Shown: piece after piece, positions 21,886-47,684 of the stretch | Layout: each line of letters opens with the position of its first letter | Numbering within the stretch: the stretch's first letter is position 1 | Assembly (NCBI GenBank): GCA_018819105.1 | Contig: JAHJQV010000018.1 | Span: forward strand, 47,787 to 111,786 | DNA length: 64,000 nucleotides | Source: Gammaproteobacteria bacterium | GTDB taxonomy: Bacteria; Pseudomonadota; Gammaproteobacteria; Xanthomonadales; Wenzhouxiangellaceae | Direction of reading: 5' to 3' | Position numbers and translations under genes: made by a program | Notes under the pieces: model-generated | What the model was told of the DNA's origin: nothing | The model's input: only the letters and a program-made list of their open reading frames with translations | The model's database searches: none

Positions 21886-21933
21886 GTAGCGACCATTTTT
21901 CCGGCGCTTTTCGTTATCCGCCGATTTCACCGA

Positions 21934-25531: not shown

Positions 25532-26980
25532 TCAAAATGAAAACCGACTGATGAACTGATCCACCGGCATGTCATCCAGGCTCTCCGGCTGTGCCAGCAT
25601 GGCCGTGATGGCCTGCGCCTGGCGTGCCGGGTAATGCTGCTCGATGGCCTGCTTGAACTTGCTGCGCAGCACCGGGATGCCCTCATCTCGACGGCGTCGG
25701 TGGCCAATCGGATAATCCATGGCAACCCGTTCACTGCTGCTGCCATCAGCATAAAAGATTTGCACCGCGTTGCCAATGGCGCGCTTGTCCGGGTCGAAAT
25801 AATCTTTCGTGAACTGCGGGTTTTCCGACACCTGCATTTTGTCACGCAACTGGTCGATGCGCGCGTCGGCAGCGTGCGCATCGCTGTAGCTGTCGGCGCT
25901 CAGCTGACCGCTGATCAACGGCACCGCCACCATGTACTGAATGCAGTGGTCTCGGTCGGCGTAATTGTCCAGCGGCCCGGTCTTGTTGATGATGCGATTG
26001 CCGGCTTCCTGGGTCTCGATGACGATGCGCTCGATCTGATCAAGGCGATCCTTGACCTGCGGGTGCAGCATCATGGCACATTCCACCGCAGTCTGGGCAT
26101 GGAATTCGGCCGGGAACGACAGCTTGAACAAAATGTTTTCCATCACGTAGCTGCCGAGTTCGCGCTGCAGCGTGATCGGCTTGCCCGCAAACAACACATC
26201 CTGAAAACCCCAGGTTATCGCCGACAGCGCCGATGGATAACCCATTTCGCCACGCTGTGCGAGCAGCGCCAGCGTGACGGCGCGGCGACAGGCGTCACCG
26301 GCGGCCCAGCTCTTGCGCGAGCCGGTATTGGGCGCATGCCGGTAGGTGCGCAGGGCACCGCCATCGACCCAGGCATTGCTGACGGCGTTGATGACATCGT
26401 CGCGACTGCCACCCAGCATGTGCGTGATCACCGCCGTGGAGGCCACCCGCACCAGCAGCACATGATCCAGACCGACGCGATTGAAACTGTTGTCCAGCGC
26501 CAGTACGCCCTGGATTTCATGCGCCTTGATCGCCGCAGTGAAGACTTCCCGCATGGTCAATGGTGCCTCACCGAGGGCGCGACGCTGCTGGCTGAGGTAA
26601 TCGGCCACTGCCAGAATGCTGCCGAGGTTGTCGGATGGGTGTCCCCATTCGGCCGCCAGCCAGGTGTCATTGAAATCCAGATAGCGGATGAGCACACCGA
26701 TGTTGAAAGCACCCTGTACCGGATCCAGCCGGTACGCGGTGCCGGGGACACGGCAACCCTGTGCCAGGTCGGCACCCGGCACCAGTGGCCCGAGCAGCTT
26801 GACGCATTCCGGAAAGCGCATCGCCAGCGCGGCACAGGCGAGGCTGTCCAGCACGCAGTAGCGGGCGGTCGAGTAAGCCAGATCGCTGTCGATCTGATGC
26901 TGGCAGGTGTAGTCGGCGATCTGCTGGATGATGTCGTCGACAGGCGGGCGTTGGGCCGCGGTGATGTCCGGTGAGCTCAT
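25532..26980 (-). CDS. prpD: 2-methylcitrate dehydratase
   Basis: 482 aa MmgE/PrpD family with end-to-end resemblance to PrpD (DYTCQ..., SWAAGDA, HCIQYMVAV). Confidence 0.9.
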   Translation of the reverse strand: MSSPDITAAQRPPVDDIIQQIADYTCQHQIDSDLAYSTARYCVLDSLACAALAMRFPECVKLLGPLVPGADLAQGCRVPGTAYRLDPVQGAFNIGVLIRYLDFNDTWLAAEWGHPSDNLGSILAVADYLSQQRRALGEAPLTMREVFTAAIKAHEIQGVLALDNSFNRVGLDHVLLVRVASTAVITHMLGGSRDDVINAVSNAWVDGGALRTYRHAPNTGSRKSWAAGDACRRAVTLALLAQRGEMGYPSALSAITWGFQDVLFAGKPITLQRELGSYVMENILFKLSFPAEFHAQTAVECAMMLHPQVKDRLDQIERIVIETQEAGNRIINKTGPLDNYADRDHCIQYMVAVPLISGQLSADSYSDAHAADARIDQLRDKMQVSENPQFTKDYFDPDKRAIGNAVQIFYADGSSSERVAMDYPIGHRRRRDEGIPVLRSKFKQAIEQHYPARQAQAITAMLAQPESLDDMPVDQFISRFSF

Positions 26981-30589: not shown

Positions 30590-31993
30590 ATGGAACTTTT
30601 TGCGCTCTTGACAAGTGATCACAAGCCCACCGCAAAGCTGCTGACAGCAATACTGTTCTGGCTGTCGCTGCTGGCGGGGCTGCCGTGCGCGGCACAGCCG
30701 GCTGATGCGGTCTCCACATCGGCTGTGAATCCTGCCACAACGCTAGCCGCCGGGCCAATGCCAGGCTACAGCACCGCGCAGGAAGCGGCGGTGTGGGTAC
30801 AGACCCGCGAGGCTGCCAGCGTGCAACTGCTGTACTGGCCGGAAGGCAGGGAGCAGCAGAGCTCGCGCAGTGCCAGCGTACAGACCAGACCGGATCGCGC
30901 CAACACCGCCACCCTGACCGCCAGCAATCTGCTGCCCGGCACACGTTATCACTACCGCATCGTGGTCAATGGCGAGTTGCTGCCAGCCACGCATTCCCAG
31001 CACTTCAACAGCCAGTCACTGCTGCATGAAGGCTTGGCTGATTTCAGCTTCGCACTGGGCTCCTGCGCCAAGGTCAACGCGCCACCTTTCGATGCACCCA
31101 ACTACCGCAACGGTGGGGATTACCAGATCTTCGACGCCATCGCCGAGCAGCAGCCGGATTTCATGCTGTGGCTGGGCGACAACGCCTATTACCTGCCGCC
31201 CGACACCAGTTCTGCTTCCGGCATGTACGGCCGCTACAGCCAGGTCCGGCAATTGCCCGAGCTACAGCGACTGCTCAGCAGCACGCATCACTACGCCATC
31301 TGGGACGATCACGACTACGGCCCGAACAACTCCGACCGCAGCTTCGGTCTGCGTGACATCAGCAAGCAGGTGTTTCACAGTTTCTGGGCCAACCCGGTGC
31401 GCGATGCTGCCGGCAGCGGTGGCATCAGCAGCACGTTTGAGTGGCAGGATGCGGCGTTTTTCCTGCTCGACAACCGCAGCCACCGGCGCGCCAATTTGCG
31501 CGTCACCGGCCAGCGTCAGATACTGGGCCCGCAGCAGCTGGACTGGCTGATCAACGCGCTGTCAAACTCGCTGGCCACGTTCAAGTTCATCGTCATCGGC
31601 GGCCAGGTGCTCAACAGTGGTGAAGTGTTTGAAAACCATATCAACATTGCCCCCGGCGAACGCCGGGAACTGCTCGACCGCATCGCCGCCGAACGCATCC
31701 CCGGCGTAGTCATACTCAGCGGCGACCGGCACCACTCGGCCATGCACATCATGCCCCGCTACGAACAGTATCCACTGCACGAATGGACCGTGTCACCACT
31801 GACCGCCAAAGCCTACAGCCCGGTGCGCGGCGAAGGCCAGTACATCGTTGATGACAGCATCTACACCGAACGCAATTTCGGCGTTATCAGGATCAGCGGC
31901 CCTGCCGAACGTCGCCGCCTGCAGATGATCCTGCACGACGCCAATGGCCGCGAGGTGTGGTCTACCCGGATTGATGCCGAGGAACTGCAGTGA
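30590..31993 (+). CDS. PhoD-like alkaline phosphatase / phosphodiesterase
   Basis: Signal peptide followed by metallophosphatase motifs typical of PhoD (FSFALGSCAK, FMLWLGDNAYY, AIWDDHDYGPNN, ILSGDRHHS). Confidence 0.85.
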   Translation: MELFALLTSDHKPTAKLLTAILFWLSLLAGLPCAAQPADAVSTSAVNPATTLAAGPMPGYSTAQEAAVWVQTREAASVQLLYWPEGREQQSSRSASVQTRPDRANTATLTASNLLPGTRYHYRIVVNGELLPATHSQHFNSQSLLHEGLADFSFALGSCAKVNAPPFDAPNYRNGGDYQIFDAIAEQQPDFMLWLGDNAYYLPPDTSSASGMYGRYSQVRQLPELQRLLSSTHHYAIWDDHDYGPNNSDRSFGLRDISKQVFHSFWANPVRDAAGSGGISSTFEWQDAAFFLLDNRSHRRANLRVTGQRQILGPQQLDWLINALSNSLATFKFIVIGGQVLNSGEVFENHINIAPGERRELLDRIAAERIPGVVILSGDRHHSAMHIMPRYEQYPLHEWTVSPLTAKAYSPVRGEGQYIVDDSIYTERNFGVIRISGPAERRRLQMILHDANGREVWSTRIDAEELQ

Positions 31994-32003
31994 GGCGGCA
32001 TGT
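31796..32003. repeat. left copy of a 208-bp direct repeat (3' end of the PhoD-like gene plus 10 nt)
   Basis: Identical to 42399-42606 except one synonymous difference (t at 31885 vs c at 42488). Offset is 10,603 bp. Confidence 0.9.
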
Positions 32004-32139
32004 AACTGTGACTGGAAAACGCCTTACGAGGCAATGCATGAATTATTGCAATATGAACTTGAGACCAAGCTCTCTTCCGAATCCCCATGCCCCCAAATGA
32101 AGCCCAAGCATTTGCTGAATGGCGGTTAATAATTATGCT

Positions 32140-34191
32140 TTATTCTGTTTCGAAGCTGTCCGCAAACAGAGCGACAATGTCAATGTCGGTGCTCTGATTA
32201 TTGGTCGGATTGCGGTCGGGTAATCCATCAGGCAGAGCGACGCTGACCGTATTCAGTACGGTTTCTGATTCATCGGCAATTGCGGTCACAGTCAGTTCGA
32301 TCAGCACCTGTCCAAAAACCCCCAGGTCTACACTGGTCTGGATATCGCCAGTGCCGCTGTTTATGCTGCATGCGGACGTTGCGTCTGCGGTACATATCCA
32401 ACTCGCGGTCTTACGGTCAAGTGTTGCAGGCAACAGGTCGGTCACAGTGACGGCTTCTACTGCCACCGGGGTCAAATTCTGAACGCTGATGTCATAAGTG
32501 GTCGATTCATCTGGAGTAACATATATCTTCTGATTGGATTTGGTGACCGCAATGTCCAGAGATGGGATGCCGAATACTACGTATGCTTCCCCTGCGTCGT
32601 CCAAACCATTGCGATCGGCATTGATGGTGCTGATGAGCAGGTCTTCACGGCCATCTCCGTTTAAATCGCCTGCCGCATTGACCTGCTCACCAGAGCGATC
32701 CTGGACCATAACGCCGTTCATCTGCATGCCGTTAACGGCGTCCACGCCGGGCTGATCGAACTGGCTGAGCTCGATCACCTGCTGTCCAGCGTTGGGTGGA
32801 CCACCAAACAGTACATAACTGATACCACTCTCGGTAAGGCTGGTATCGCCACGTGAGGCAGCGACCAGTACGTCATCAAAACCGTCACCATTGAAATCGC
32901 CTGCCGGGCTGATGGCGTTGCCAGCGAAATCAAACATTGCAGCACCATTTACATGCACACCAGAGGTGGCCGCCATTGAGCTGCCGTTCAGTTCGGCAAG
33001 ATGAATGCTTGCTGGCAGGTTGCTGCTACCAAACACTATGCTGGCACGACCGCTACTGATGCCATTAATACTGGCAAAAGTTTCACCAATCGCAAAATCG
33101 TTGACACCATCGGCATTGAAGTCGCCCACTGCACCAACCGATTCAAAGCAGGGATGGGCACAAACAATGGTGGCGCCGGTGACCGCCTGCATGCCTGAAC
33201 CATTGAGCTCGGCCAGATCAATGGCATCGGGCAACGTAGCGGAACCGTACACCAGATAATTGAAAAATTCACTCTGACTGTTTGTGCTGTTGGCGATCAG
33301 GATGTCATCGATTGCATCGCCGTTGACATCGCCCACACCACGCACCCGCCCGCCGATACGTTCATTGTCGTTAAAGCCGTTGATCCGGACACCCGCTGCA
33401 GCGTTGGCTCCAACACCGTTCAAATCCATCAGCTCAACAATGGCCGGCAGGCTGCCGTCGTCCTGGCCATACAGGATTATCACCTGGCCGCGATTGCTGC
33501 CGCCGGGTTCGATATCGGCATTGACCACGCCGATCAGCAGGTCGTCGACGCCGTCGTCATTGATATCACCCGCGCCATCAATGGAAAAGCTGGATTGGTC
33601 AATGGCCGCTGCGCCGCGAATGGTGATGCCCGGCGTCGAGTTGGGCCCGGTTCCATTGAGATCTGACAACTCAATGGAGGCTGGGAAGCCAGCATCATCG
33701 CGACCGAAGATCACGTAGGTTTCTCCGGCACCGGAAAATGTGCCGGTGAACGCGATCGGCGCACTCAGCACCAGATCGTCGATGCCATCGCCGTTGATAT
33801 CTCCGGCCGCCGCGATTTCCCGCCCGGTCAGGCTGCCGCCCGATACGCCCAGGATGGTCAGGCCCAGCGTACCGTCAAAATCAGCTGCTGAAAGCGTCTC
33901 GGGAAAACCACCCTGACGACCAAACAGCACAAACGCAGCACCGCTGTCGTTGCCGTTAGTATCATCGCCGGGCAGGCCGATGGCAACGTCGTCAAAGCCA
34001 TCGGCATTGATATCGCCGATGCCGCTGAGACCGGCACCCAGATTGGCAAACACAGTGTTGCCGGGAAACGTTATCCCGGCCAGACTACCGGCAGTATTCA
34101 GCTCGGCCAGTTCGACGACTTGCGGCAGTTCTTGAGCATGCACAGGGGCTAGCATGAGCGCCAATACGGCAAGCCAGCCTCTGTTGGCCAT
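32140..34191 (-). CDS. secreted FG-GAP (integrin-alpha-like) seven-blade beta-propeller protein with a C-terminal DUF11-type domain
   Basis: Signal peptide MANRGWLAVLALMLAPVHA. Seven GD(I/V/F/L)NxDGxDD(L/V/F/I) calcium-loop repeats. A DUF11-like region LDIAVTKSNQ...NNQSTDIDI. Ends ...VALFADSFETE. Confidence 0.8.
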   Translation of the reverse strand: MANRGWLAVLALMLAPVHAQELPQVVELAELNTAGSLAGITFPGNTVFANLGAGLSGIGDINADGFDDVAIGLPGDDTNGNDSGAAFVLFGRQGGFPETLSAADFDGTLGLTILGVSGGSLTGREIAAAGDINGDGIDDLVLSAPIAFTGTFSGAGETYVIFGRDDAGFPASIELSDLNGTGPNSTPGITIRGAAAIDQSSFSIDGAGDINDDGVDDLLIGVVNADIEPGGSNRGQVIILYGQDDGSLPAIVELMDLNGVGANAAAGVRINGFNDNERIGGRVRGVGDVNGDAIDDILIANSTNSQSEFFNYLVYGSATLPDAIDLAELNGSGMQAVTGATIVCAHPCFESVGAVGDFNADGVNDFAIGETFASINGISSGRASIVFGSSNLPASIHLAELNGSSMAATSGVHVNGAAMFDFAGNAISPAGDFNGDGFDDVLVAASRGDTSLTESGISYVLFGGPPNAGQQVIELSQFDQPGVDAVNGMQMNGVMVQDRSGEQVNAAGDLNGDGREDLLISTINADRNGLDDAGEAYVVFGIPSLDIAVTKSNQKIYVTPDESTTYDISVQNLTPVAVEAVTVTDLLPATLDRKTASWICTADATSACSINSGTGDIQTSVDLGVFGQVLIELTVTAIADESETVLNTVSVALPDGLPDRNPTNNQSTDIDIVALFADSFETE

Positions 34192-34263
34192 AGCCCCAGC
34201 AGCGTTTATGGAGTCAGTGAAAAACAGCATGTGAATCCTCGTTCTTGATTAGTCTTTTCGCAG

Positions 34264-36747
34264 TTATTCAAAGCCGTCAAAAAACACGATGCCACTGGTG
34301 CCAACCAGGGGAACAGATGTGTCATTGCTCAGAGAGACTGAGTTGGATCGAATCCGAAGCTCGCTTGTTACGATGCCGGGCTGAAACGGAGTGAATTGCA
34401 GGTCGACCGTACAGCTGCCTTGCGCCGGTACTGGTTGAGTGCAACCATTACTGGCGACGGCAAACTGAGTGTTGATTGCGATAACAAACGCTATTTCCAA
34501 AGGTCGGCTACCGGTATTGGTCAACGTCAAAGCTTCTATCGGGCTGGTTACGTCGACCGGCGTGTCCTGAAACTGAATGCTGCCCGGGCTTGCATTCAGC
34601 TCGGCGCCTGTGATCGGATTGGCGAATACCGGAATGGTCAGCGGTGAATCAGGAGTGTCCACGCTAATCGTCACCTCTGGCGTTTGGGACATTGATATGA
34701 ACTCATCGGTTTCCAGAATGACGGTCACCTCGCAGCTATCGCCGGCTAGCAATTGCAGGTCGCAGTCGCTCTCAACGGTAGTCGATGAAGAGCTCTCACT
34801 GATTTCCAGAATGTGCAATATCCCTGGTCCATTGCTTTCAATAGTTATAGTTCGGCTCTCATCCTCATTCGCCGGTTCAACGATATAAGTGCCAAAGTTA
34901 AATGCGAGAGGCGAGATTGAGATGCTCGGTTCCGGGCTGACCTCAATCGCTCCAATATCGGTCATTCCGTTGAACGTACGCGGAAACGTAAAACCGCGTT
35001 GATCACTGATCTCACTGTTGGGATTGTCCCCGGAATCCAGTACCACGCTGCCGGTATCGGGCATATAGGTTTGCGGACATTCTTCCTCACCAGGGAAGCC
35101 TGCGGTCATGAAGCAACCGTTGTCATCGAGCGAATCGAATGCCGGGCCGTCACTAAAAATATTGTCGACATTATTGCCGTTTATTTCAGTACTCGCGTCG
35201 CCGAATACAGATTGAATTACGTTAACCACATGGCCAAGGACATCGTTTTCAAGTAAAAAATTATCATCGAGGTTGTCGGCAAGCACGGTGCTGATGAGTG
35301 TTAGCTCCGCCATACTCATGGCAAGCTCCGGGCTGTAAAAAATGCCACCAGCATGGCCGCCGGCCTGATTGTCGATAACGGTGGAATTACTGATCATCAA
35401 GCCCTGGCTATCGCCGGAATAATACAAGGCACCGCCATTTGACTGTATGCCCGATGCCTCATTACCAGTGATGGTTGAATTGCGGATATCCAGATCGCCG
35501 GTCACCCACAGACCGCCGCCATGTGCTGCCCCCGCGTTGGTGGAGTTGAACGCCACGGTAGAATTAGCCAGCAGCAGGTTACCGGCGGCGATTGCACCAC
35601 CATGGTGACCATTACCGTTGGTTTGGTTGTTCCGCAGGATATTGCTGTCGGTCAATTCGATATTGGGGCCATAAATGGCACCACCGGGCGCTATGCAGTT
35701 GTTGCTTTCGAAGATACTCTGGCTGATGAAGACCACATTGTCTGTGGCAATAGCGCCACCGCCGGTATTCTGACAACGGTTACCGGAAAATCGACCTCTG
35801 GTAATTTCTGCATCGCAATCGGCACCAATAAAGACCGCACCACCAGCGCTGGTCGCGTCATTATCAACGAAGTCAAGACCATCAAGGTCAATGTTGTCAC
35901 CAATAGTACAGCCCGATGATGCAAACGCGCCGCCGAAACTCGCAGAGTTCTCAAAAAAGAGTGTTCCGCCACCTCCAGGTCCAAATCCAACAATGCTTTC
36001 GTATTGTCTGGCAAATATCGCCCCACCCATCGAGGACGGGCCAGCGGCACTGTTGCCAGAGAAAATCAGTCGAGGGCCTCCACTGGTTGTCAGCCTGCCC
36101 TGTTCAACATAAATCGCGCCCCCGTGTGCTTCCTGACCCTGGGTCGAATTGTTGGTAATCGCACTGATGATGCCGGAGGGTCTGATCGATACGTTACCGG
36201 TGCCGCCGATATACATGGCACCGCCATGGGCGCCATCACCCATCGTGGTGTTTCCATTCATTAGTAGATTTCTCAGCGTCAGCCTGCCCAGCGTGCACAC
36301 TGCACCACCTTGACCCGTGCCGGGAGCACAAGTCGCGGGCTCACTGCCGTTGGCCGTGGTCATACCATCCAAGAAAGCGACGTTCTCGAGCGCCAACAAG
36401 CTATCCGGGTTAGTGACAACCAGAATTCTGGAATTGTTGCTGGCGTCCAATGCAACCCGTGAAGCGGGCCCCTCAATGGTGACAAAATTGTCAGTCGTAA
36501 GCTCCAGGGGACCTGTAGTGATACTGATGAAATCGATGGATTCAGCGAAAGTGATTTCGACTTCATTGCTGCTGGCATTTGCCATTGCCACGGCATCGCG
36601 CAGGCTGCCGGGGCCGGCATTGTTGCTGTTGGTGACGACAAATTCATCGGTCTGTCCAGCATGGATGCTGCTGGAAACAAGCAACAGCAAGCTGCATAGA
36701 CATATTGGTAGATGGCAGTAGAGTGCCATGCTGTGAGGTCTCATCAT
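34264..36747 (-). CDS. secreted right-handed beta-helix protein (Pmp-like GGAI repeats) with two choice-of-anchor-D / ASH-like Ig domains
   Basis: Signal peptide MMRPHSMALYCHLPICLCSLLLLVSSSIHA. NAGPGSLRDAVAMAN start motif and many GGA(I/M/V)(Y/F) repeats. C-terminal Ig-like segments (ISISPLAFNFGT..., LNASPGSIQFQDTPV...). Ends ...GIVFFDGFE. AGGA lies 9 nt upstream of the ATG. Confidence 0.75.
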   Translation of the reverse strand: MMRPHSMALYCHLPICLCSLLLLVSSSIHAGQTDEFVVTNSNNAGPGSLRDAVAMANASSNEVEITFAESIDFISITTGPLELTTDNFVTIEGPASRVALDASNNSRILVVTNPDSLLALENVAFLDGMTTANGSEPATCAPGTGQGGAVCTLGRLTLRNLLMNGNTTMGDGAHGGAMYIGGTGNVSIRPSGIISAITNNSTQGQEAHGGAIYVEQGRLTTSGGPRLIFSGNSAAGPSSMGGAIFARQYESIVGFGPGGGGTLFFENSASFGGAFASSGCTIGDNIDLDGLDFVDNDATSAGGAVFIGADCDAEITRGRFSGNRCQNTGGGAIATDNVVFISQSIFESNNCIAPGGAIYGPNIELTDSNILRNNQTNGNGHHGGAIAAGNLLLANSTVAFNSTNAGAAHGGGLWVTGDLDIRNSTITGNEASGIQSNGGALYYSGDSQGLMISNSTVIDNQAGGHAGGIFYSPELAMSMAELTLISTVLADNLDDNFLLENDVLGHVVNVIQSVFGDASTEINGNNVDNIFSDGPAFDSLDDNGCFMTAGFPGEEECPQTYMPDTGSVVLDSGDNPNSEISDQRGFTFPRTFNGMTDIGAIEVSPEPSISISPLAFNFGTYIVEPANEDESRTITIESNGPGILHILEISESSSSTTVESDCDLQLLAGDSCEVTVILETDEFISMSQTPEVTISVDTPDSPLTIPVFANPITGAELNASPGSIQFQDTPVDVTSPIEALTLTNTGSRPLEIAFVIAINTQFAVASNGCTQPVPAQGSCTVDLQFTPFQPGIVTSELRIRSNSVSLSNDTSVPLVGTSGIVFFDGFE

Positions 36748-36762
36748 CGTTGGTATCCTGTT

Positions 36763-38925
36763 TTATTCAAAGCCATCTTTGAATACTTCATTGGCTTGAA
36801 GGAAAATGCCACCGACTTGCTGATCATCGATGAGTTGCAGTGAGCAGCTCTGACCGCTGCAGGCACCGATGAAATTCTGAAAAGTCGCGCCGGCATCGGG
36901 CGTGGGCGTCAGGGTGATACTGGTGTTGCCGGGGTAGCTGGCCGAGCAGGTGCCGGGGCAATTGATGGTGCCGGTGTTGTCGGCGATGCTGCCAGGGCCA
37001 GTCACCGTGATGCTCAGTACCGGGTCGTTTTCGATCAGCACAAACTGGGCGGTGGCGCCGCCATTCATGTTCAGTGTGGCGTTACACACCGGACCGCTGC
37101 TGGCTGAGCAGACACCGCCCCAGAGGTTGAACTGGCTGCCGGGTTCCGGCGTGGCGGTCAGCGTGATGCTGGTACCCGGCGGGTAGTCCTGCTGGCAGTC
37201 GCCCGGACAGTTGATGCCCAGTGGATTACTGGTGACGCTGCCAGCTGCACCGCCGGGCGTGTCAAGCAAAATGGTCAGCGTCACCGGCTGCAGATCAAAG
37301 TTGGCGGTGACACTGCGCATTTGATCCATGGTCACAGCACAGGCACCCATGCCGGAGCAATCGCCGCTCCAGCCAGCAAATACGCTGCCACCGTCGGGAC
37401 TGGGCGTCAGATTGACCATGGTGCCGACCGGATAATCAGCGCTGCATACGCCCGGACAGTTGATGCCGCCTGGATTGCTGCTCAGGCTGCCACTGCCGCT
37501 TCCAGCAATAGTGGTCTGCAGGGTGAAATCATCCACCGGATACTGCAACTCAATCGCACCGGCGTCGCAGAGGCTGCCGCCCATGCCCGGTCCACCGGCG
37601 CGCGGATTACCGACCGCGTCCGGCAATGTGATATCGCAATTGAATCCGGCCTCCATAAAGTCCACCGCCGGGCCATTGCGCAGCGGCAAATAATGGTTGT
37701 CGACTCGAATTGGATCGACAATATTACGGTAGTCATCGCTGAAGGTATCAAACCCATTGATACAGTTGTCCTGCTCATCGAGTACGTTGCCGTCAAACGA
37801 CATGTACGTTTGGGATGGGAAATTGGCGGAGCAGTCAACGCCGACAATGGTGTTGTTCACCAGCCGTCCGTTGCCGTGAATAATGCTGCTTCCATAAGTG
37901 ATGGTGCCGCTGCCGCCGTTGGCTTCCTGCACATGCATGCCGTCACCCAGCGCGCCGCCAGCACAGGCGTTGGCATCGTTTTGTACCAGCGTGCTGCGTA
38001 CCAGTTGCACCAGCACATCCTCGCCCGGGAAACCGGTATTGGCAATTGCCACCACATGAATGCCACCACCCACACGCCCTTCATTGCCGGCAATGGTGGA
38101 ATCGTTGAAAATCGCATAGGCAGCGGTCGGGCTGGTGGCTTCGATACGCAGCGCACCTCCAGTGCCGGCGGTATTGCCGCCACCACCGCGTGAACTGCCA
38201 CATTCGTTTGCGTCGTTATTCAACAGCGCGCTGCGGTTGATGGTCAGCGAGCCATTAAACTGGGCAATTGCACCGCCGCCGGTTTCAGTACTGCTGCTGG
38301 AGGTGCGATTGACCTGCAGCAGGGCATCGGTGATTTCCACCGTGCTGTCATCCAGTCTGAGCGCACCGCCAAAGGCAAACAGTCCTTCTGCGGTATTGCC
38401 GGAAATGCGTATATCGCTGAGTGTCAGATTGGTATCGGTGGCCAATATGGCACCTCCTCCCGACATGGGAAAGGCGGATATGCCGCCGCTCAGGTTCAGG
38501 TTGCTCATGCTGTGTGTACCTGTGTTGAACTCGAGCAGCCGAAACGCTTCGGTGCTGAAATTATCCCGGCTGATGGTTGCGTTTCGACCTTGGACAATGA
38601 CGTCGTCGACGATGACCGGCAGTGCATTATCGGTGCTGCCGTAGGCACTATCGAATTCGTAGTCAAAGTCTTGCGACAGCCGCAGGAAATCGGTGCCATT
38701 GCCCATCGGACAATCGGGATTCATGGCGCTGTCGGTGTTGGCGTTCTCGATGGCTTCGATCAGGCTGCACTGACCATCGGCAATGGCTGGATTGGTTTCC
38801 GGGTCAACCTCGATCAATGCGGCTTTCGCGGGAAGGACTGTCAGCATGAAGCTGAACAGCATCAGATTGATAAGAAGTTTGCTGCAGACACTTGTCAGGC
38901 CAGCATGGTTGGAGGCTCCTGTCAT
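36763..38925 (-). CDS. secreted beta-helix protein (choice-of-anchor-Q-like N-terminus) with three divergent InlB-B-repeat-like modules
   Basis: ORF 36763..39150. The signal-peptide-like start MTGASNHAGLTSVCSKLLINLMLFSFMLTVLPAKA at 38925 was chosen, with no clear SD, so the start is uncertain. DGQCSLIEAIENAN motif and GGAI/GGAL repeats. Three G-x-INCPG-x-C...YP-x-GT...LT-x-P...G-x-CSG modules. Ends ...EVFKDGFE. Confidence 0.7.
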   Translation of the reverse strand: MTGASNHAGLTSVCSKLLINLMLFSFMLTVLPAKAALIEVDPETNPAIADGQCSLIEAIENANTDSAMNPDCPMGNGTDFLRLSQDFDYEFDSAYGSTDNALPVIVDDVIVQGRNATISRDNFSTEAFRLLEFNTGTHSMSNLNLSGGISAFPMSGGGAILATDTNLTLSDIRISGNTAEGLFAFGGALRLDDSTVEITDALLQVNRTSSSSTETGGGAIAQFNGSLTINRSALLNNDANECGSSRGGGGNTAGTGGALRIEATSPTAAYAIFNDSTIAGNEGRVGGGIHVVAIANTGFPGEDVLVQLVRSTLVQNDANACAGGALGDGMHVQEANGGSGTITYGSSIIHGNGRLVNNTIVGVDCSANFPSQTYMSFDGNVLDEQDNCINGFDTFSDDYRNIVDPIRVDNHYLPLRNGPAVDFMEAGFNCDITLPDAVGNPRAGGPGMGGSLCDAGAIELQYPVDDFTLQTTIAGSGSGSLSSNPGGINCPGVCSADYPVGTMVNLTPSPDGGSVFAGWSGDCSGMGACAVTMDQMRSVTANFDLQPVTLTILLDTPGGAAGSVTSNPLGINCPGDCQQDYPPGTSITLTATPEPGSQFNLWGGVCSASSGPVCNATLNMNGGATAQFVLIENDPVLSITVTGPGSIADNTGTINCPGTCSASYPGNTSITLTPTPDAGATFQNFIGACSGQSCSLQLIDDQQVGGIFLQANEVFKDGFE

Positions 38926-39240
38926 GACCGAGCGCGCTGCTGCCACCATGCTGCCCGGCAATGTCGGTTTTGCGCATTTCCTGACGTGACACCAAGCTGC
39001 GCGTCTCTGCTCATTTGCTCTCATCCTTGCTGCCATAGTGACTTCTCTCGTCGTATCCAGTCGTGCCATAGGGCTCAAGCGGCCTTTTACCGAAGCGGGC
39101 TGTGTGTTGCTGCTATGGTTGTTACTGATTAACGCAACAGTTGCGCCCAAAAAGGCTCAAGATGGATTGCGCTGGAACGAAAAAAGTTGGCACGGTGGGA
39201 AACAGACACGCCTTACGGATCAGGGCAGAAGAATTCAATC

Positions 39241-39813
39241 CTATTGCCGGATTTCACGCCTCAGCCAGGTCTTGGCCAACAACCACTGGCGCTTGACAGT
39301 GGCCGGTGAAATATTGAGCGCTTCTGCGGTCTCGTCGATCTTTAGCCCCGCGAAGTAACGGCACTCGACCACCCGCGCCGCGCGGGCATCAATATCGGCC
39401 AGTCTGTTCAAGGCCTCGTCAAGCGCCTCGATATCGACATTCGGCGTCTCGCCAAGGGCAGGGTTGGCAAGAAAAGTATCGGCATGGCTGAGCGTGAGGT
39501 GTTCAGCGCCGTTGCCACGCTTGAGGCGCTTGCGCTGCTTTGCATGGTTGACCAGCACACGGCGCATGATCATAGATGCCACGGCCAGAAAATGCGCCCG
39601 ATCCTGCCAAGATGCGCGATTCTGCTGAGCAAGCCGCAAGTAGGCTTCATTGACCAAGGCCCCGGTATCGAGCGTGTGGCCAGGGCGTTCGCTGCGCAGA
39701 TGACGGCTGGCGGCCAAACGCAACTCGTCATGGATCAGCGGCATGAGTTCATCAAGGGCATTGCGATCGCCTTGTCGAGCGTCCTGGATCAGTTGCGTGA
39801 TGTGACCATTCAT
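39241..39813 (-). CDS. ECF-type RNA polymerase sigma factor, kinase-associated class (TIGR02999 / Sigma70_ECF-like)
   Basis: ITQLIQDARQGDRNALDELMPLIHDELRLAASRHLRSERPGHTLDTGALVNEAYLRL... and region 4 ARVVECRYFAGLKIDETAEALNISPATVKRQW. The ATG overlaps the kinase stop (ATGA at 39810-39813). Confidence 0.9.
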   Translation of the reverse strand: MNGHITQLIQDARQGDRNALDELMPLIHDELRLAASRHLRSERPGHTLDTGALVNEAYLRLAQQNRASWQDRAHFLAVASMIMRRVLVNHAKQRKRLKRGNGAEHLTLSHADTFLANPALGETPNVDIEALDEALNRLADIDARAARVVECRYFAGLKIDETAEALNISPATVKRQWLLAKTWLRREIRQ

Positions 39814-41897
39814 CGCTGGCTGTCGTTGATCTGCTCAAGGCTTTCCCGAGCCTGGGATACAAAGGGATGGTCTTCGCCAAGGGTGTTCGTGGCGATACTC
39901 AGTGCTTTCTGCAGATCGGCCCTGGCGAGCACGAACTCGCCCTGCAGTTCGCGCAACTCAGCGCGGGCGTGAAGCAGAAAGGCAGCATAGGGATGCTGCG
40001 TTCCAAAGGCTCGCTCTACAATCTCAAGAGACGCATCGTAGGCGGTTTCAGCCCGTTCGAGCCGGCCCAGGTCGGTGTAGATCATGCCAAGGTTGTTCCA
40101 GTTCGCCGCCAGATCCTGATCCATATCGGCACCGGGAAGTAAGCGCCTGACCTCAACCACTCGTTCCAGCATCATTGCCGACTCTTCCAGTCTGCCCTGA
40201 TCGCTCAGCGCAATTGCAAGCTGGTTGAGCGCGCTGGCGTGCAAGTCAGGCGTCGCGTTGGAGAGTCCATCCAGCACATCGAGAGCGTCGCGAGCCAGCT
40301 GCTCCGATCGGGCGTAGTTTTCCAGTCGGTATTCGGCCTTGGCCAGCTCAAGAAGACTGCCCGCATGGGATTCGCGATCCGTGCCGCCACGCCGTGAAAT
40401 CTCTACCGCTTCGGCCAGTGCATCGCGGGCGCGGTCATGGTCACCGCGCACTTGCAGCACGCCGCCAACGGCGGTCAGCACCGCGTTTCGCTCGGTGTCG
40501 CTCAGGCTTTCATTCTGGCGCAACCGTTCCAGGCCACGATCAAGCATCTCCGCAGCGGTATAGTCCCGCTCCGCGCGAGTGGGATCAGCCAGGCTAAACA
40601 GATCGGTGAGAAAGTTTGTCGTGGCCTGCGCGCGGTCACGCTCGAGGCTGAGAGCCTTCGACTGTTCGGCAATGCGTGATGCGGTCAGCGAGGCGAACAC
40701 GCCAAAGCCGATGGCGACCAGAAAAAGCGCGGTTGCAAACGAAGCGCTCCAGCGATTGCGGAGCAGGAACTTTCCCGCCCGGTAGGCCAGCGTGTCGGGT
40801 CTGGCCCTTACCGGCTGACCATGCAACCAACGTGTCAGATCGTCGGCGAGCGCTTCGGCGGAGCGATAGCGCCGCTGCGGCTCTGGATGCAGCGCCTGCT
40901 GGCAGATGGTATCCAGATCCCCGCGCAGTTTGCGGCGCAGACCCTCGGCCTTCTCGCCTCTGAGATGCGCGTGCTCGGGGACGACGCATTCCGAGGGTCT
41001 GGGTGGCCTCGGGTCCGATTGTTCTCCATGCAACTCTAATGGTGGTCGCTGGCCGCTCAATAGCTGAAATAGCAGCCTGCCCAATTGATAGACATCGGTG
41101 GCAGTGGTGACCATCCCACCTGACAGTTGCTCCGGGCTGGCGAAGTCTGGTGTAAATAGACCCGTGGCATCGGTCAGGTTATCGTCGGCATGCAATAACT
41201 TGGCGATGCCGAAATCGAGCAGGACCGGCACCCCCTGTGGGGTGACCAGGATATTGGCTGGTTTGATGTCGCGGTGAATCACCAGATTCTGATGCGCGAA
41301 CTGGACAGATTCGCAGATCGGAATCATCAGGCACAGCCGCTCGTCTACCGATAGCTTGTGCGTATCACTGTACTCGTCCACCGCGCTTGCCCCTTCAAGG
41401 TAGTGCATCGCGAACCACGGACGACCATCTCCGGTGACGCCGCCATCCAGTATCGATGCGATATTGGGGTGATTGAGCGCTGCGAGTATCCGTCGTTCGG
41501 CATGAAAACGATTGATAATGGTTTCCGAGTTCATGCCGAGAGCAATGACCTTGATCGCTGCATACTGGGAGAAGTCTTCACCGATGCGCTCGCCCAGGTA
41601 CACGGCGCCCATGCCACCGCGATCAATCCGGCTGCGGATGATCCAGGCACCGAGAGACTCACCAATCAGCGGGTCGTCGCCAAGAGCACTTTCTGGCCCG
41701 ATCGCTACAGTAACCGGCAGTGGCTGTTCAAGGAAGTCCGGATCGGAATCGAATTGCCGGATAAGGGACTCAAGTTCGGCGCGGAACGCCGGATCGCCAT
41801 CGCCAAGTCGCTCAAGCAGGCCTGCACGAACTTCGGATCGGGAGCTGGCAAGCGCATACAACGCTGTTTGCAGCCTTTGCCAAGTATCCTTTTCCAT
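39810..41897 (-). CDS. membrane Ser/Thr protein kinase with a C-terminal TPR domain
   Basis: Hanks kinase motifs RGGMGAVYLG, AIKVI, HRDIKPANIL, DFGIAK. One TM helix (ATALFLVAIGFGVFASL), then about 300 aa of TPR-like repeats. The N-terminal WQRLQTALYALAS...DPAFRAELESLIRQ segment is typical of sigma-linked kinases. Start is 41897 (MEKDTW) or 41936. Confidence 0.9.
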   Translation of the reverse strand: MEKDTWQRLQTALYALASSRSEVRAGLLERLGDGDPAFRAELESLIRQFDSDPDFLEQPLPVTVAIGPESALGDDPLIGESLGAWIIRSRIDRGGMGAVYLGERIGEDFSQYAAIKVIALGMNSETIINRFHAERRILAALNHPNIASILDGGVTGDGRPWFAMHYLEGASAVDEYSDTHKLSVDERLCLMIPICESVQFAHQNLVIHRDIKPANILVTPQGVPVLLDFGIAKLLHADDNLTDATGLFTPDFASPEQLSGGMVTTATDVYQLGRLLFQLLSGQRPPLELHGEQSDPRPPRPSECVVPEHAHLRGEKAEGLRRKLRGDLDTICQQALHPEPQRRYRSAEALADDLTRWLHGQPVRARPDTLAYRAGKFLLRNRWSASFATALFLVAIGFGVFASLTASRIAEQSKALSLERDRAQATTNFLTDLFSLADPTRAERDYTAAEMLDRGLERLRQNESLSDTERNAVLTAVGGVLQVRGDHDRARDALAEAVEISRRGGTDRESHAGSLLELAKAEYRLENYARSEQLARDALDVLDGLSNATPDLHASALNQLAIALSDQGRLEESAMMLERVVEVRRLLPGADMDQDLAANWNNLGMIYTDLGRLERAETAYDASLEIVERAFGTQHPYAAFLLHARAELRELQGEFVLARADLQKALSIATNTLGEDHPFVSQARESLEQINDSQR

Positions 41898-42318
41898 ACG
41901 GCAGCAATAGACCTGACTGTGATGACGCACAATCATTGCAACGATACTGAGTTGGTGTCAAGTCCGATGTCTCTGAATGCACCGTACAACAGTGGCCTTG
42001 AACTGATATCGCATTGGGGAAGACAGGTTTCATCAAATCATTGGCAGCAAAAGCTCTATCCGGGAGGCAGCGGCAAAGCTTGACAACAAGTTTCTGCAGG
42101 GCATCACTACGGCTGAGCGATTGTTCCCGCAGCGGATTTAGCTGAATTCCCACTTATCGACATAATCGGCCTTGGTCGAGGTTTGGCGTGCCTTGCACGT
42201 CGGTTTTACGGCCAGATTGAACCTTTCTGACTGCTATCAGGATAGTTGACTACGTAAATCTGTTGCCGTCAACATTGTTGGGCAATGTATAGGTTTCACT
42301 GCTTGCGGTATGGGTGTC

Positions 42319-42400
42319 CACGACTATCCCACGACTATCCTCCTCCACGACTATCCTCCACGACTATCCTGGGTGTCCACGACTATCCACACGACTATCC
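42319..42400. repeat. array of six direct CACGACTATCC 11-mers
   Basis: Copies at 42319, 42330, 42346, 42359, 42378 and 42390. Two are preceded by tgggtgtc (42311 and 42370). The last copy runs directly into the right 208-bp repeat. A degenerate inverted copy (ggatagttg) sits near 42240. Confidence 0.85.
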
Positions 42401-42596
42401 ACTGACCGCCAAAGCCTACAGCCCGGTGCGCGGCGAAGGCCAGTACATCGTTGATGACAGCATCTACACCGAACGCAATTTCGGCGTCATCAGGATCAGC
42501 GGCCCTGCCGAACGTCGCCGCCTGCAGATGATCCTGCACGACGCCAATGGCCGCGAGGTGTGGTCTACCCGGATTGATGCCGAGGAACTGCAGTGA
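42399..42596 (+). pseudogene. orphan 3' fragment (last 65 codons plus stop) of the PhoD-like gene
   Basis: Encodes PLTAKAYSPVRGEGQYIVDDSIYTERNFGVIRISGPAERRRLQMILHDANGREVWSTRIDAEELQ, identical to the C-terminus of 30590..31993. The track ORF 42285..42596 is only this fragment fused to the 11-mer array. Confidence 0.85.
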
Positions 42597-42606
42597 GGCG
42601 GCATGT
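42399..42606. repeat. right copy of the 208-bp direct repeat
   Basis: See 31796-32003; 207 of 208 identical. Confidence 0.9.
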
Positions 42607-42725
42607 GCTGTCTTTCTGGGTTAGTTGGTCATGCCAGCCTGAAACACAAAATCACCAGGGCTCGGCTTGTTGCAGTCCGAAGCAATAATGTTTAAACTTC
42701 GTCTAAACATACCCTGTATATCGCC

Positions 42726-42980
42726 ATGACCGAAACTGTTCTCGAAATTAAACACTGGGGCAACAACCTCGGCGTGCGGCTGCCTGCCGCCATAGCCCGT
42801 GCTGCAGATCTGCACGCAGATCAACGTGTGCGCATCACCGTGGAGGGCGAGCGCATCATCATTACCCCGCTGCAGGAAGAGCACTTGAGCCTGCAACAAC
42901 GGCTGACCAGATTTGATCCAGATCGGCATGGTGGCGAAGCCATGGCCGAAAGTGGCTATATTGGTGCAGAGCTATGGTAA
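42726..42980 (+). CDS. mazE: MazE/AbrB-fold antitoxin
   Basis: 84 aa. IKHWGNNLGVRLPAAIARAADLHADQRVRITVEGERIIITP is the SpoVT/AbrB swapped-hairpin motif. Overlaps the toxin gene by 7 nt. Confidence 0.85.
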   Translation: MTETVLEIKHWGNNLGVRLPAAIARAADLHADQRVRITVEGERIIITPLQEEHLSLQQRLTRFDPDRHGGEAMAESGYIGAELW

Positions 42981-43348
42981 AAGCCGACAATTGGGTTCCG
43001 CAACGACAGGATGTCATCTGGATTGACTGCAACCCGCAGCGTGGACAAGAAATGCGCGACATACACCCTTTTCTGGTGCTGTCACCTGAAGCCTTCAACC
43101 AGCGCACCTCATTGGTTATAGGTCTGCCGATGACAACTGCATCCTACAACACTGACAACCCTTTCGCCGTGGACGTGGGCGTGGCCAAAGGACGCAAAGC
43201 CGGGCAAGCGAGTTATGTGCTATGCCACCAGCCCAAATCCTTCGACTGGCGTCGTCGTAGAGGCGCGAAACATCCCATGAAAAAATTGAGCGATGCCCGC
43301 TTTGCCGAAGTGCTGACTGTGCTTAACCAGATCATCCAGCTGGCTTGA
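42974..43348 (+). CDS. mazF: MazF/PemK family endoribonuclease toxin
   Basis: 124 aa. PQRQDVIWIDCNPQRGQEMRDIHPFLVLSP...SLVIGLPMTT... is PemK-like. Confidence 0.9.
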   Translation: MVKADNWVPQRQDVIWIDCNPQRGQEMRDIHPFLVLSPEAFNQRTSLVIGLPMTTASYNTDNPFAVDVGVAKGRKAGQASYVLCHQPKSFDWRRRRGAKHPMKKLSDARFAEVLTVLNQIIQLA

Positions 43349-43643: not shown

Positions 43644-43853
43644 TCAGGCAACTTCGACGTATTCGACTTGGCTGCTTGGAGGCGGTATTGCCTCGCCGTC
43701 CTCCCTCATACCATCAAGGTGAAATTCAATAGCTTCCCGAATTTGCTGTTCTACCTCCTCGAATGTTGCTCCGGTAGCAACACAGCCCGGCAAGTCCGGG
43801 ACATATGCAGAGTAGTTGCTTATTGCTCTTTCGATAACAATTGCGTACTTCAT
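43644..43853 (-). CDS. hicB: HicB family antitoxin
   Basis: 69 aa. MKYAIVIERAISNYSAYVPDLPGCVATGATFEEVEQQIREAIEFHLDGM is the HicB/UPF0150 fold signature. Confidence 0.85.
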   Translation of the reverse strand: MKYAIVIERAISNYSAYVPDLPGCVATGATFEEVEQQIREAIEFHLDGMREDGEAIPPPSSQVEYVEVA

Positions 43854-43861
43854 AAGCGCAC

Positions 43862-44047
43862 CTATTTCCAGCCGGCCTGCTTGTAAATGCTATCCACGGT
43901 TCCGACAGCCAAATCGTCGCCAGGCTTTCCAGGCACCGTCACCCGGCCCGATCTCGTGGGGTGTTTGAACTGCCGATGACTGCCTCGTGTCGAATAATGA
44001 TACCAGCCATCTTCCTTCAACTTTCGAAGAATATCACGTACTTTCAT
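43862..44047 (-). CDS. hicA: HicA mRNA interferase toxin
   Basis: 61 aa. MKVRDILRKLKEDGWYHYSTRGSHRQFKHP...VTVPGKPGDDLAVGT is the HicA signature. Confidence 0.9.
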   Translation of the reverse strand: MKVRDILRKLKEDGWYHYSTRGSHRQFKHPTRSGRVTVPGKPGDDLAVGTVDSIYKQAGWK

Positions 44048-44404
44048 CTATTCCGAACAGCTCACAGATAGCCCCGAATTTGTTCGCCTAACTTGAACAT
44101 GGTGGATGAAATCGCCGGGTATTGAATATCGGGACAGAAACGCTACTTATGCTTGCGCCGTTACTCAGATCGTGGCTTATCCTGCTGAAATATCGGGCAG
44201 TTTCCATAACTTCTGCCGGCAATCTCTGCCTTTTCCTACGAATATTGTCAACTTTTCCTAGCTTCCGAATCGACACATCCTGATTGACCTGCTCAGCCTC
44301 CCTGCTGGAATGATGCATCATAACCAAAGAAGAGGCAAGTGCAGGCATGGGTGAGAAGCTTCTTGACCGAATGCCTAGGTCGAAGCACCCATCCTTCATA
44401 CTTG

Positions 44405-44558
44405 TGCCGGATGCGCTGTGCTTGACCGGCTCACATTTGATTGACCGTACCTGTTTTTGCCGGATGCGCTGTGCTTATCCGGCCTACGGGTTGGGTCGAT
44501 CAGTCGATGGTTTTTGCCGGACGCGCAGATTACATCCGGCCAACATTGGGTTGACTGT
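44405..44558. repeat. three tandem REP hairpins (enterobacterial-REP-like sequence), period about 53-57 bp
   Basis: tgccggatgcgctgtgcttgaccggc (44405-44430), tgccggatgcgctgtgcttatccggc (44458-44483), tgccggacgcgcagattacatccggc (44515-44540). Each has a GCCGGA...TCCGGC stem and a related about 20-nt tail. Immediately downstream of the prpC stop. Confidence 0.75.
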
Positions 44559-44569: not shown

Positions 44570-45693
44570 TCAACGCTCACCAATGGCCACCACCTCACGC
44601 TTGTCCGGGCCGATGTAGTCGGCGCTGGGGCGGATGATGCGGTTGTTGTTGCGCTGTTCCATGACGTGGGCGGCCCAGCCGGTGAGTCGCGACATGACGA
44701 AGATCGGTGTGAACAGTTTGGTGGGTATGCCCATGTAGTGGTAGGCTGAGGCGTGGAAGAAGTCGGCGTTGGCGAACAGTTTTTTCTCGTCCCACATGAT
44801 GCGCTCAATGCGGTCGGACACATCAAACAGCAGTTTGTTGCCGGTTTCCTTGGCCAGTTGTCGAGACCATTCCTTGATGATGGCATTGCGGGGATCACGC
44901 TCGCGGTAGACGGCGTGGCCGAAGCCCATGATTTTTTCCTTGGCCTGCAGCATCCGCGCCACGTCCTGTTCGGCCTGCTCCACCGATCTGTACTGTTCCA
45001 GCATGGCCATGGCGGCCTCGTTGGCGCCGCCGTGCAGCGGGCCGCGCAGTGTGCCGATGGCAGCGGTGATGCAGGAATGCAGATCCGACAGCGTGGAAGC
45101 ACACACCCTGGCGGCAAAGGTGGAGGCGTTGAACTCGTGCTCGGCGTACAGGATCAGCGACACATCCATGACCTTGCTGTGCAGTTCGCTGGGGGCCACG
45201 CCGTGCAGCAGACGCAGGAACTGCGCACCGATGCCGTCATCGTCGGTGTCGGTGTCGATGCGCACGTTGTCGTGGCTGTAGCGATACCAGTACAGCAGCA
45301 TGCCCGGCAGCGTTGCCAGCAGCCGGTCGATGTGATCCAGTTGCTGGGCGAAATCGCTTTCTGTTTCCAGGTTGCCCAGCAGCGAGCAGCCGGTGCGCAG
45401 CACGTCCATGGGATGGGCGTCGGCGGGAATCTGCTCCAGCACGGTTTTCAGCGCTTGCGGCAGTGCGCGCAGACCCTGCAGGCGCTTGACGTAGCTGTCC
45501 AGCTCGCTCTGTTTGGGCAATTCGCCACGCAGCAGCAGCCAGGCGACCTCGTTGAAGCTGGCCTGTTCGGCCAGATCGCGCACGTCGTAACCGCGATATC
45601 GCAGGCTGTTGCCGGCCGCGCCGACGGTACAGATGCTGGTTTCGCCAGCCGACTGGCCACGCAGGCCGGCACCGGTGTTCTGCTTGATCATGT

Positions 45694-45697
<4 letters not shown>
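44570..45697 (-). CDS. prpC: 2-methylcitrate synthase
   Basis: 375 aa citrate-synthase family. [16 protein letters not shown]...SLRYRGYDV is typical of PrpC. GFGHAVY catalytic motif. 4-nt overlap with prpB. Confidence 0.9.

Positions 45698-47684
<1,987 letters not shown>

Follow-up and report, generated by a model that had tools for sequence, protein, structure and literature searches.

The 64,000-nucleotide stretch analysed here (hereafter the window), part of contig JAHJQV010000018.1 in assembly GCA_018819105.1, derives from an uncultured gammaproteobacterium of the family Wenzhouxiangellaceae and contains a five-gene cassette lodged between two direct copies of the 208-bp 3′ end of a phoD-like phosphatase gene. 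We put the probability at about 0.6 that this duplication is the scar of a recent insertion completed without a dedicated recombinase, counting jointly a Campbell-type crossover and a one-ended route. The window also forms part of a 112.6-kb MEGAHIT contig in an ENA metagenome assembly, which differs in length by 42 bp from the JGI contig cited below, and PhoD proteins identical or nearly so to that of the window are annotated in metagenome-assembled genomes of Wenzhouxiangellaceae or Gammaproteobacteria. The gene order is glnA, prpD, TonB receptor, phoD, cassette, an array of 11-mers, phoD fragment, mazEF, hicBA, palindromes of the repetitive extragenic palindromic (REP) kind, prpC, prpB and mdh, and the whole region from 32 to 44.5 kb lies between phoD and prpC.

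A near-perfect duplication of the phoD 3′ end flanks the cassette

The intact phoD gene (30590–31993, plus strand) encodes a 467-amino-acid PhoD-family phosphatase (Pfam PhoD (PF09423), DUF7800 and PhoD_N) whose orthologues in relatives show 95–99% amino-acid identity, and its last 198 nt fall in the left repeat. The left (31796–32003) and right (42399–42606) copies of the repeat, both unstranded features, match at 207 of 208 bases. Their sole mismatch, T at 31885 and C at 42488, falls at a third codon position (GTT versus GTC, valine either way), just as an initial annotation of this DNA had described the repeats as identical but for one synonymous base. That annotation also took the left copy to complete an intact PhoD-like gene and the right one to be an orphan, which the open reading frames (ORFs) bear out: the right copy comprises 65 codons and a stop without the 5′ part of the gene, and is annotated as an ORF of its own, of 56 or 97 amino acids, in three assemblies. 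Identity is lost sharply at both edges of the repeat, which read GTGTCA|CCACTGACC (left copy) versus GACTAT|CCACTGACC (right copy) on the left and GGCATGT|AACTGTG versus GGCATGT|GCTGTCT on the right. The longest exact stretches within the repeat measure 89 and 118 nt.

Alignment identifies the T at 31885 as the derived state, C being present in the right copy and in all relatives. The two copies have in common four states that differ from the relative L084; between L084 and the right copy there are 4 mismatches in 208 positions, a level like that of the left flank. Because the copies are each other's closest relatives (207 of 208 bases, four shared states), donor and recipient probably belonged to the same lineage and the event was recent. 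The near-identity of the repeats by itself points the same way and, with the duplication occurring in no relative examined, argues for a recent event rather than for an ancient fixed structure.

The sequences that follow the two copies differ in origin. In six of six close relatives (L084, L085, L086, L090, L093 and L094) the bases after the phoD stop codon are those found after the right copy, not the left, and the sequence common to the relatives and the right copy reads GGCGGCATGTGC..GTCT..C.GGGTTAG.... The native downstream sequence, Y (42607–42725, unstranded), stands directly after phoD in all six. As the relatives' phoD-downstream bases match those after the right copy, the right copy, Y and mazEF represent the original phoD neighbourhood; by these alignments, the right copy is the original phoD end with its native downstream sequence still attached. 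The empty site that the initial annotation had hoped to find in relatives is therefore present in all six as phoD followed directly by Y, and relative to this ancestral order 10,603 bp are inserted in the window.

At the left junction, J1 (32003/32004), a junction-specific sequence, X (32004–32069, unstranded), takes the place of the native phoD downstream sequence. The cassette of the sister lineage (L087) shows clear homology from about 32070 and weak similarity from about 32035 (alignments). At the right junction, J2 (42398/42399), the bases CCAC are common to the unit of the 11-mer array and to phoD, four bases being within chance. A terminal repeat search found no 8-mer, direct or inverted, common to the two ends of the insert, and promoter and terminator scans at both junctions gave nothing above shuffles.

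The phoD–prpC interval is a hypervariable hotspot

A scan of GTDB genomes with PhoD returned, among the matches listed, only distant relatives (at most 57% identity), and close relatives were found through exact-protein look-ups. Compared across these genomes, the phoD–prpC interval is a hypervariable hotspot with at least four alleles. Its conserved right border is prpC (44570–45697, minus strand; Pfam), a 2-methylcitrate/citrate synthase gene that is syntenic in all relatives. L093 and L094 (about 95% nucleotide identity) carry a fully empty site consisting of phoD, 214 bp and prpC. In L084 and L085, whose left flanks are about 98% identical, phoD is succeeded by Y, a mazE remnant consisting of its first 20 nt, MopE-like genes, a landmark of about 290 bp, a 159-amino-acid ORF, a different FG-GAP protein and prpC. 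In L086/L087, L089 and L090 (about 92–96% in the flanking genes), the order is phoD, Y, a mazE remnant of its first 50 nt, 295 bp, the five cassette genes also present in the window, the landmark, a cupin gene, REP and prpC. The window represents the fourth allele type, the one with the duplication.

The cassette in L086/L087 thus occupies the same hotspot with both junctions different, no phoD duplication and no 11-mer array. In the L087-type arrangement it is placed after Y and the mazE remnant, not before a phoD fragment, and its clear homology with the window is limited to the span from about 32070 to about 42240. A view of the cassette as a unit with fixed ends is contradicted by this sister lineage, in which the junctions on both sides are other than those of the window and the repeat is missing.

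Divergence along the locus is strongly mosaic. Between 38800 and 41940, which covers the kinase and sigma factor genes of the cassette and the stretch upstream of the InlB-repeat gene, the window and L087 differ at 19 positions, versus 6–40% divergence on either side. Set beside this 3.1-kb tract, core genes are 4–8% diverged from L087 and the neighbouring secreted-protein genes 10–35%. Synonymous divergence (dS) from L087 amounts to 0.017 in the kinase gene and 0.053 in that of the sigma factor, compared with 0.09–0.35 (about 0.14) for flanking core genes and 0.24, 0.39 and 1.8 for the secreted proteins. On these values, 38800–41940 is a recent recombination tract within the cassette. The dS from L084 is 0–0.011 in the right flank (prpC, prpB and mdh) versus 0.05–0.13 in the left flank (glnA to phoD). 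The interval 44570–47600 is near-identical to L084/L085 and records another recent exchange, distinct from the first and adjoining the hotspot at its right border.

The landmark is a conserved non-coding sequence of about 290 bp (42018–42310, unstranded) that Blast located in every hotspot allele type (L082, L084, L085 and L087), at 13484–13780 in L084, 7505–7797 in L087 and 13139–13432 in L082. It is kept even in L082, whose PhoD is 78% identical, and its near-invariant blocks include GCTTGACA and GGTTTGGCGTGCCTGG. In alignments, the window copy is itself a mosaic, diverged but L087-like to about 42140 and L084-like thereafter. An Rfam search of the whole window yielded no family, and for neither strand did consensus folding of the landmark support an RNA gene, the covariation term being positive (penalising). 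The JGI contigs of L082 (111 kb; PhoD 78% identical) and L083 (104 kb; PhoD 73% identical) stop 2.2 kb and 4.3 kb, respectively, past phoD, which suggests that the phoD-downstream region is hard to assemble there, being variable or repeated.

Taken together, the mosaic of dS values, the 38800–41940 tract, the L084-like right flank and the switch within the landmark show that host homologous recombination continually swaps pieces at this locus. On the evidence of these comparisons, the cassette is a long-standing member of the variable gene pool of the clade and not a discrete foreign element. Its portrayal as a foreign block does not survive, the kinase–sigma core being near-identical between lineages and the secreted-protein genes more diverged than core genes.

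Base composition agrees in direction with the initial annotation, less so in size. The cassette has a G+C (GC) content of 56.0% versus 60.8% for the rest of the window, is among the lowest-GC 10.4-kb segments within the 64 kb, and comprises genes with a GC content at third codon positions of 0.57–0.68 versus 0.74–0.82 in core genes. The contrast with the flanks is nonetheless smaller than spot counts had indicated, the TonB receptor gene standing at 58.4% rather than 63% and the rsmB region at about 66% (1-kb windows) rather than 72%. Within the cassette, the secreted-protein genes have 52.7–58.0% GC and the kinase gene 59.7%. The low-GC stretch runs on beyond the right repeat, through two toxin–antitoxin pairs (52%), up to prpC.

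An 11-mer array at the right junction

A tandem array of six exact CACGACTATCC units, overlooked in the initial annotation, occupies 42314–42400 (plus strand) and ends in J2. The units start at 42319, 42330, 42346, 42359, 42378 and 42390, and the array (42319–42400) overlaps the first bases of the right repeat. By chance, 0.57 copies would be expected in the window. The array was not found in any relative and is particular to the strain of the window; L084 has one degenerate CACGACTATCC unit at the same position, and the array looks like a local expansion of one such unit. In JGI metagenome contigs the CACGACTATCC pair pattern gave 31 matches, none of them related (each is either a coding motif, the conserved AHDYPHDYPEVEA, or a tandem array of another kind), and in viral contigs it gave 0 matches. 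An origin of the array as scrambled phoD sequence from just upstream of the repeat was considered, TATCCAC, CACGA and GTGTC occurring in both, and was ruled out, since 31% of random 101-mers drawn from the window attain the local alignment score of 14. Separately, a kinase-based scan of the JGI metagenome contigs gave no match, though JGI samples hold the kinase, and this collection is evidently one without those samples.

The locus lacks mobility machinery

The absence of an integrase or transposase from the cassette, already remarked on in the initial annotation, was confirmed by Pfam and NCBIfam scans, which detected no recombinase among the five genes; nor did Pfam detect an integrase or transposase within 10 kb on either side. 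Across the 64 kb only one gene resembles a transposase, a Y1/IS200-like ORF, similar to REP-associated tyrosine transposases, of 274 amino acids (60283–61107, minus strand), 18 kb away. No tRNA genes were found, the cassette had no megablast match among plasmids and phages, and apart from the phoD piece there are neither att-like nor terminal repeats.

In common with an integrative element, the locus has attL/attR-like repeats that include a gene 3′ end, and an empty site in relatives. It has no recombinase in the cassette, in the 10 kb on either side or in the rest of the window, and its ends are not those of other genomes, L086/L087, L089 and L090 differing at both junctions. A transposon or insertion sequence is also a poor match, with no terminal inverted repeats, no transposase in the insert and a duplication of 208 bp in place of a short target-site duplication.

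Probable insertion through host recombination

Under the favoured scenario, the event would have occurred in one strain lineage of an uncultured Wenzhouxiangellaceae population. The recipient chromosome would have had the order phoD–Y–mazEF–hicBA–prpC, and the donor would have been a same-species strain with the module already beside phoD. The most likely route would involve a circular molecule with the last 208 bp of the phoD region and one RecA-type crossover in the homology (Campbell-type), which would regenerate phoD and displace its former 3′ end downstream. In such a circle the 11-mer array would lead into the 208 bp and these into X. The crossover would have fallen within the first 89 nt of the homology if it was the circle that brought in the T. 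A direct duplication with near-identical copies (207 of 208) and an intact target gene (phoD), as left by Campbell integration, is what we observe. In Escherichia coli, single crossovers of circular molecules gave duplications of 109–950 bp and were commoner than true illegitimate joins (PMC3240628).

Alternatively, a linear fragment starting inside phoD could have been anchored by homology further right and illegitimately joined at the CCAC of J2, by homology-facilitated illegitimate recombination (de Vries and Wackernagel 2002, as cited in PMC5361080). For such one-ended joining, the sequence shared at J2 is within chance, and the near-identical prpC–mdh tract shared with L084 is not contiguous with the repeat. 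Arrival of the right repeat together with that L084-like tract was rejected, as the repeat has 4 differences from L084 in 208 bp and the REP region between them is unalignable. Host recombination between the repeats could delete the module again, restoring phoD–Y.

The initial annotation had proposed Campbell-type or site-specific integration of a circle. A single crossover fits the structure; the site-specific half, which called for an element that targets gene 3′ ends, is not supported, as neither the cassette nor the 10 kb to its left and right contain an integrase and, apart from the phoD piece, att-like repeats are missing. What had been regarded as unusual, the missing integrase, is instead the expected signature of host homologous or illegitimate recombination.

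Several points weigh against a recent insertion of this kind. Neither a circle nor the donor arrangement (phoD–X–cassette without duplication) has been observed, and J1, 10 nt past the stop codon, requires an earlier or simultaneous illegitimate join of undated origin. The Campbell-type and one-ended models predict an identical final sequence. J2 is read in one assembly, the arrangement in the JGI and NCBI data being deduced from gene calls and accession order. The six exact 11-mers abut J2 and could be protein-binding sites. Finally, Logan contigs from two runs (SRR6514730 and SRR35109419) match the window at 100% identity but break off at 42067, 131 bp before the kinase gene begins, which implies a branch in the k=31 graph and may reflect another structural variant in the population. 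Two other causes of that break were set aside: an L087-type strain already differs at 42039, 42043 and 42065, and the 208-bp repeat does not explain it.

Alternative explanations

A rearrangement within one genome is the best of the competing accounts, and it is unlikely. It supposes that the cassette and mazEF–hicBA were both resident and that a template switch, or segmental duplication plus deletions, produced the present order with no transfer. The mutual nearest relationship of the copies (207 of 208), the CCAC microhomology at J2, the slippage-type tandem array at the junction and the long residence of the cassette in the hotspot are all in its favour. Starting from any relative's arrangement, however, at least three events would be needed (a duplication and two deletions), and no relative has intact mazEF plus the cassette: alleles with the cassette or MopE keep a mazE remnant of 20–50 nt, as the alignments of L084 and L086 show. 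The window combines two allele types (intact mazEF and the cassette), which points to recombination between genomes.

The cassette might instead be a non-autonomous site-specific element resembling a cis-mobilizable element (CIME), with the phoD 3′ end as att, an integrase encoded elsewhere and the CACGACTATCC units perhaps serving as arm-type sites. This we consider quite improbable. Direct repeats of a gene 3′ end, the regenerated gene, the empty site in relatives, the lower GC than the flanks and the six exact 11-mers at one end, against 0.57 expected in the window, would all suit such an element. Yet the 64-kb window holds no integrase, only the Y1/IS200-type ORF 18 kb away; the ends are not fixed, given the other junctions and the missing repeats of the sister lineage; the array occurs in no relative, is apparently a local expansion of the L084-type degenerate unit and recurs in metagenome and viral contig scans only in unrelated contexts; and 208 bp of near-perfect identity exceeds typical att cores by far. 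Within the 64 kb of genome covered and in the plasmid and phage searches, which were empty, no related integrase-bearing element was found.

Very improbable, too, is a module that has repeatedly entered the phoD–prpC hotspot as a non-autonomous mobile unit by a hitherto undescribed mechanism, with the landmark and/or the CACGACTATCC array as recombination site and a trans-acting protein encoded elsewhere, although it would account for the different positions of the module in two lineages within one 1-kb zone, for the array at the junction and for the branches at 42067.

Least credible of all is an assembly artefact in which two co-occurring strains (phoD–X–cassette and phoD–Y–mazEF) were joined through the phoD 3′ end. 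In its favour, the window is a MEGAHIT k141 metagenome contig, its samples hold several hotspot alleles and the k=31 graphs of Logan have branches at 42067 and at either end of the repeat. Against it, a chimera formed through the repeat would not make J2, where the few bases in common with phoD fall well short of every k employed. The exact stretches of 89 and 118 nt are shorter than k=141, so that each copy is linked to its own flanking sequence by the T/C difference. Logan contigs from two further runs are 99.99–100% identical and stop exactly 30 nt, or k−1, inside the repeat ends, and the orphan fragment is a separate 56-amino-acid gene on a JGI contig of 112,601 bp and is also present in an NCBI metagenome-assembled genome (MAG; contig of 217,700 bp) as MBU1187963.1, seven accessions after PhoD, MBU1187956.1.

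The cassette encodes a sigma factor–kinase pair and three secreted proteins

The 10,395 bp between the repeats hold exactly five genes, all on the minus strand, and ORF, Pfam and NCBIfam data agree with their initial description as precisely a kinase, sigma factor and three-secreted-protein module. The kinase gene (39810–41936) encodes a Hanks-type Ser/Thr kinase of 708 amino acids with C-terminal TPR repeats (Pfam, NCBIfam) and overlaps the sigma factor gene by 4 nt. The latter (39241–39813) encodes an extracytoplasmic function (ECF) sigma factor of 190 amino acids and of the TIGR02999/PF07638 type (193.8 bits against TIGR02999, cut-off 126), which is 100% identical in the sister lineage L087 and has HTLDT (HTLDTGALVNEAYLRL) at the position of DAED in canonical ECF sigma factors. 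Group ECF43 is defined by a sigma factor without DAED in region 2.2 that is encoded beside a Ser/Thr kinase rather than an anti-sigma factor (PMC8999054), and the cassette sigma factor likewise lacks DAED and adjoins a Ser/Thr kinase gene in place of one for an anti-sigma factor. It looks like an ECF43-like, phosphorylation-activated sigma factor. Phosphorylation activates ECF43-type sigma factors in the EcfP–PknT pair of Vibrio parahaemolyticus and the EcfK–PknS pair of Xanthomonas citri (PMC8999054, PMC13147305). The cassette pair resembles these in that the sigma factor gene adjoins and overlaps a Hanks-type kinase gene, in the TIGR02999/PF07638 type and in the Thr-containing HTLDT in place of DAED, and differs in preceding three secreted repeat proteins, not type VI secretion system (T6SS) or polymyxin-resistance genes.

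The three secreted proteins have signal-peptide-like N-termini and adhesin-like repeats. The first is an FG-GAP/DUF11 repeat protein of 696 amino acids (32140–34230; Pfam, NCBIfam) with 90% amino-acid identity to L087. The second, of 827 amino acids (34264–36747), carries PMP-repeat and choice-of-anchor D/Q domains, and has only 60% amino-acid identity to the L087 allele (dS 1.8). The third is an InlB B-repeat (Flg_new_2) protein of 728 amino acids from the ATG (36763–38949), with an ORF that reaches 39150 if started at a TTG. The large secreted proteins of the hotspot, in all allele types, carry the motif F-x-D-(G/S)-F-E at the C terminus or at most 6 residues from it, as in LFADSFETE, VFFDGFE and VFKDGFE (the three cassette proteins, in the order given); further examples are VFNDGFE, VFIDGFE and IFNDGFEQTELE. 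The loci compared for this tail were 32140–39150 in the window, 14494–16128 in L084, 11668–13260 in L085 and 10865–17669 in L087. No Pfam or NCBIfam model covers the tail, which may be a sorting or recognition tag.

The module would thus combine an ECF sigma factor under phosphorylation control with its kinase and with three secreted proteins of the surface type, and a sensible guess is that it forms a stress- or contact-responsive surface-protein set under diversifying selection.

Other features of the window

To the right of the orphan fragment, two intact toxin–antitoxin pairs at 52% GC stand back to back, mazE–mazF (42726–43348, plus strand; Pfam) and hicB–hicA (43644–44047, minus strand; ORFs, Pfam HicB_lk_antitox), the second gene of the latter being one that we take to be hicA from sequence recognition only. 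Three REP-like imperfect palindromes, TGCCGGATGCGC...CCGGC (44390–44540, unstranded), lie between hicA and prpC near the right border of the hotspot, and L093 has a REP-like element of the same kind within its empty site. A further family of palindromic repeats is represented at 3110–3144, 3428–3461 and 21827–21890.

The prpD gene (25532–26980) is parted from prpC–prpB (44570–46611) by the TonB receptor gene, phoD and the island. The order prpD, TonB receptor, phoD is retained in L002, a gammaproteobacterial MAG whose PhoD is only 57% identical. Outside the Gammaproteobacteria, the best PhoD matches among those listed are from Bacteroidota and Kapaibacteria (40–48%).

Further from the cassette, a 15-bp periodic repeat at the 3′ end of the topoisomerase I gene (5486–5653) is A/G-rich on the gene strand and probably encodes a lysine-rich stretch, and a 12-bp periodic repeat (GGCCAGAGCAAG; 12852–12935) lies near the 5′ end of the rsmB ORF. 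Genes for a LexA/UmuD-like S24 peptidase, a Y-family polymerase (IMS) and an SRAP protein stand in a row at 56317–58925, followed by a NERD-domain gene of lower GC (59446–60171).

Comparison with known systems

The locus offers a natural example, from a gammaproteobacterial population not yet in culture, of variable-island cargo whose shuffling would require nothing beyond host recombination. Its scar is dated by a single difference in 208 bp, its ancestral site can be identified and it has at least four alternative alleles. For the detection of islands it carries a caution: direct repeats of a gene 3′ end and low GC alone do not indicate an integrase-type element. The cargo, an ECF sigma factor–kinase pair and three fast-evolving secreted proteins with a shared F-x-D-G-F-E tail, may merit more attention than the scar.

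Integrase-bearing islands, integrative and conjugative elements and prophages target gene 3′ ends, and the CIMEs of Streptococcus thermophilus are integrase-less derivatives of such elements. The cassette resembles them in its 3′-end direct repeats, restored gene, empty site in relatives and lower GC, and departs from them in having no integrase or partner element, a 208-bp near-perfect repeat and different ends in a sister lineage. The flexible genomic islands of marine bacteria, both replacement and additive, are exchanged by homologous recombination in flanking core genes. With these the locus shares a fixed site (phoD–prpC), at least four cargos, divergent surface or secreted proteins and short near-identical tracts; the difference is that here the duplication scar in one allele shows an additive event, not a replacement.

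Campbell integrants obtained in E. coli with lacZ-end constructs (PMC3240628) likewise have a duplicated homology segment that flanks the insert, a regenerated gene and no dedicated recombinase; 208 bp is within their range of 109–950 bp, and they are reversible by recombination between the repeats. The present case differs in being a natural event with a postulated circle, a same-species chromosomal cargo instead of a plasmid and an 11-mer array at one end. Additive displacement that leaves orphaned 3′ pieces has been described for T6SS effector–immunity and Rhs loci (PMC5361080), where, as here, a module is added by an anchor gene, the old 3′ part is orphaned downstream, no integrase is involved and the site is a multi-allele recombination hotspot. 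In the window, by contrast, the orphan is the end of an enzyme gene, not a toxin tip or immunity gene, the anchor is unchanged and there has been one round only. Overall, the structure behaves as a Campbell integrant, or as an additive displacement by homology-facilitated illegitimate recombination, within a flexible genomic island. None of these ingredients is novel in itself, and the novelty is confined to the present instance and to this hotspot of an uncultured family.

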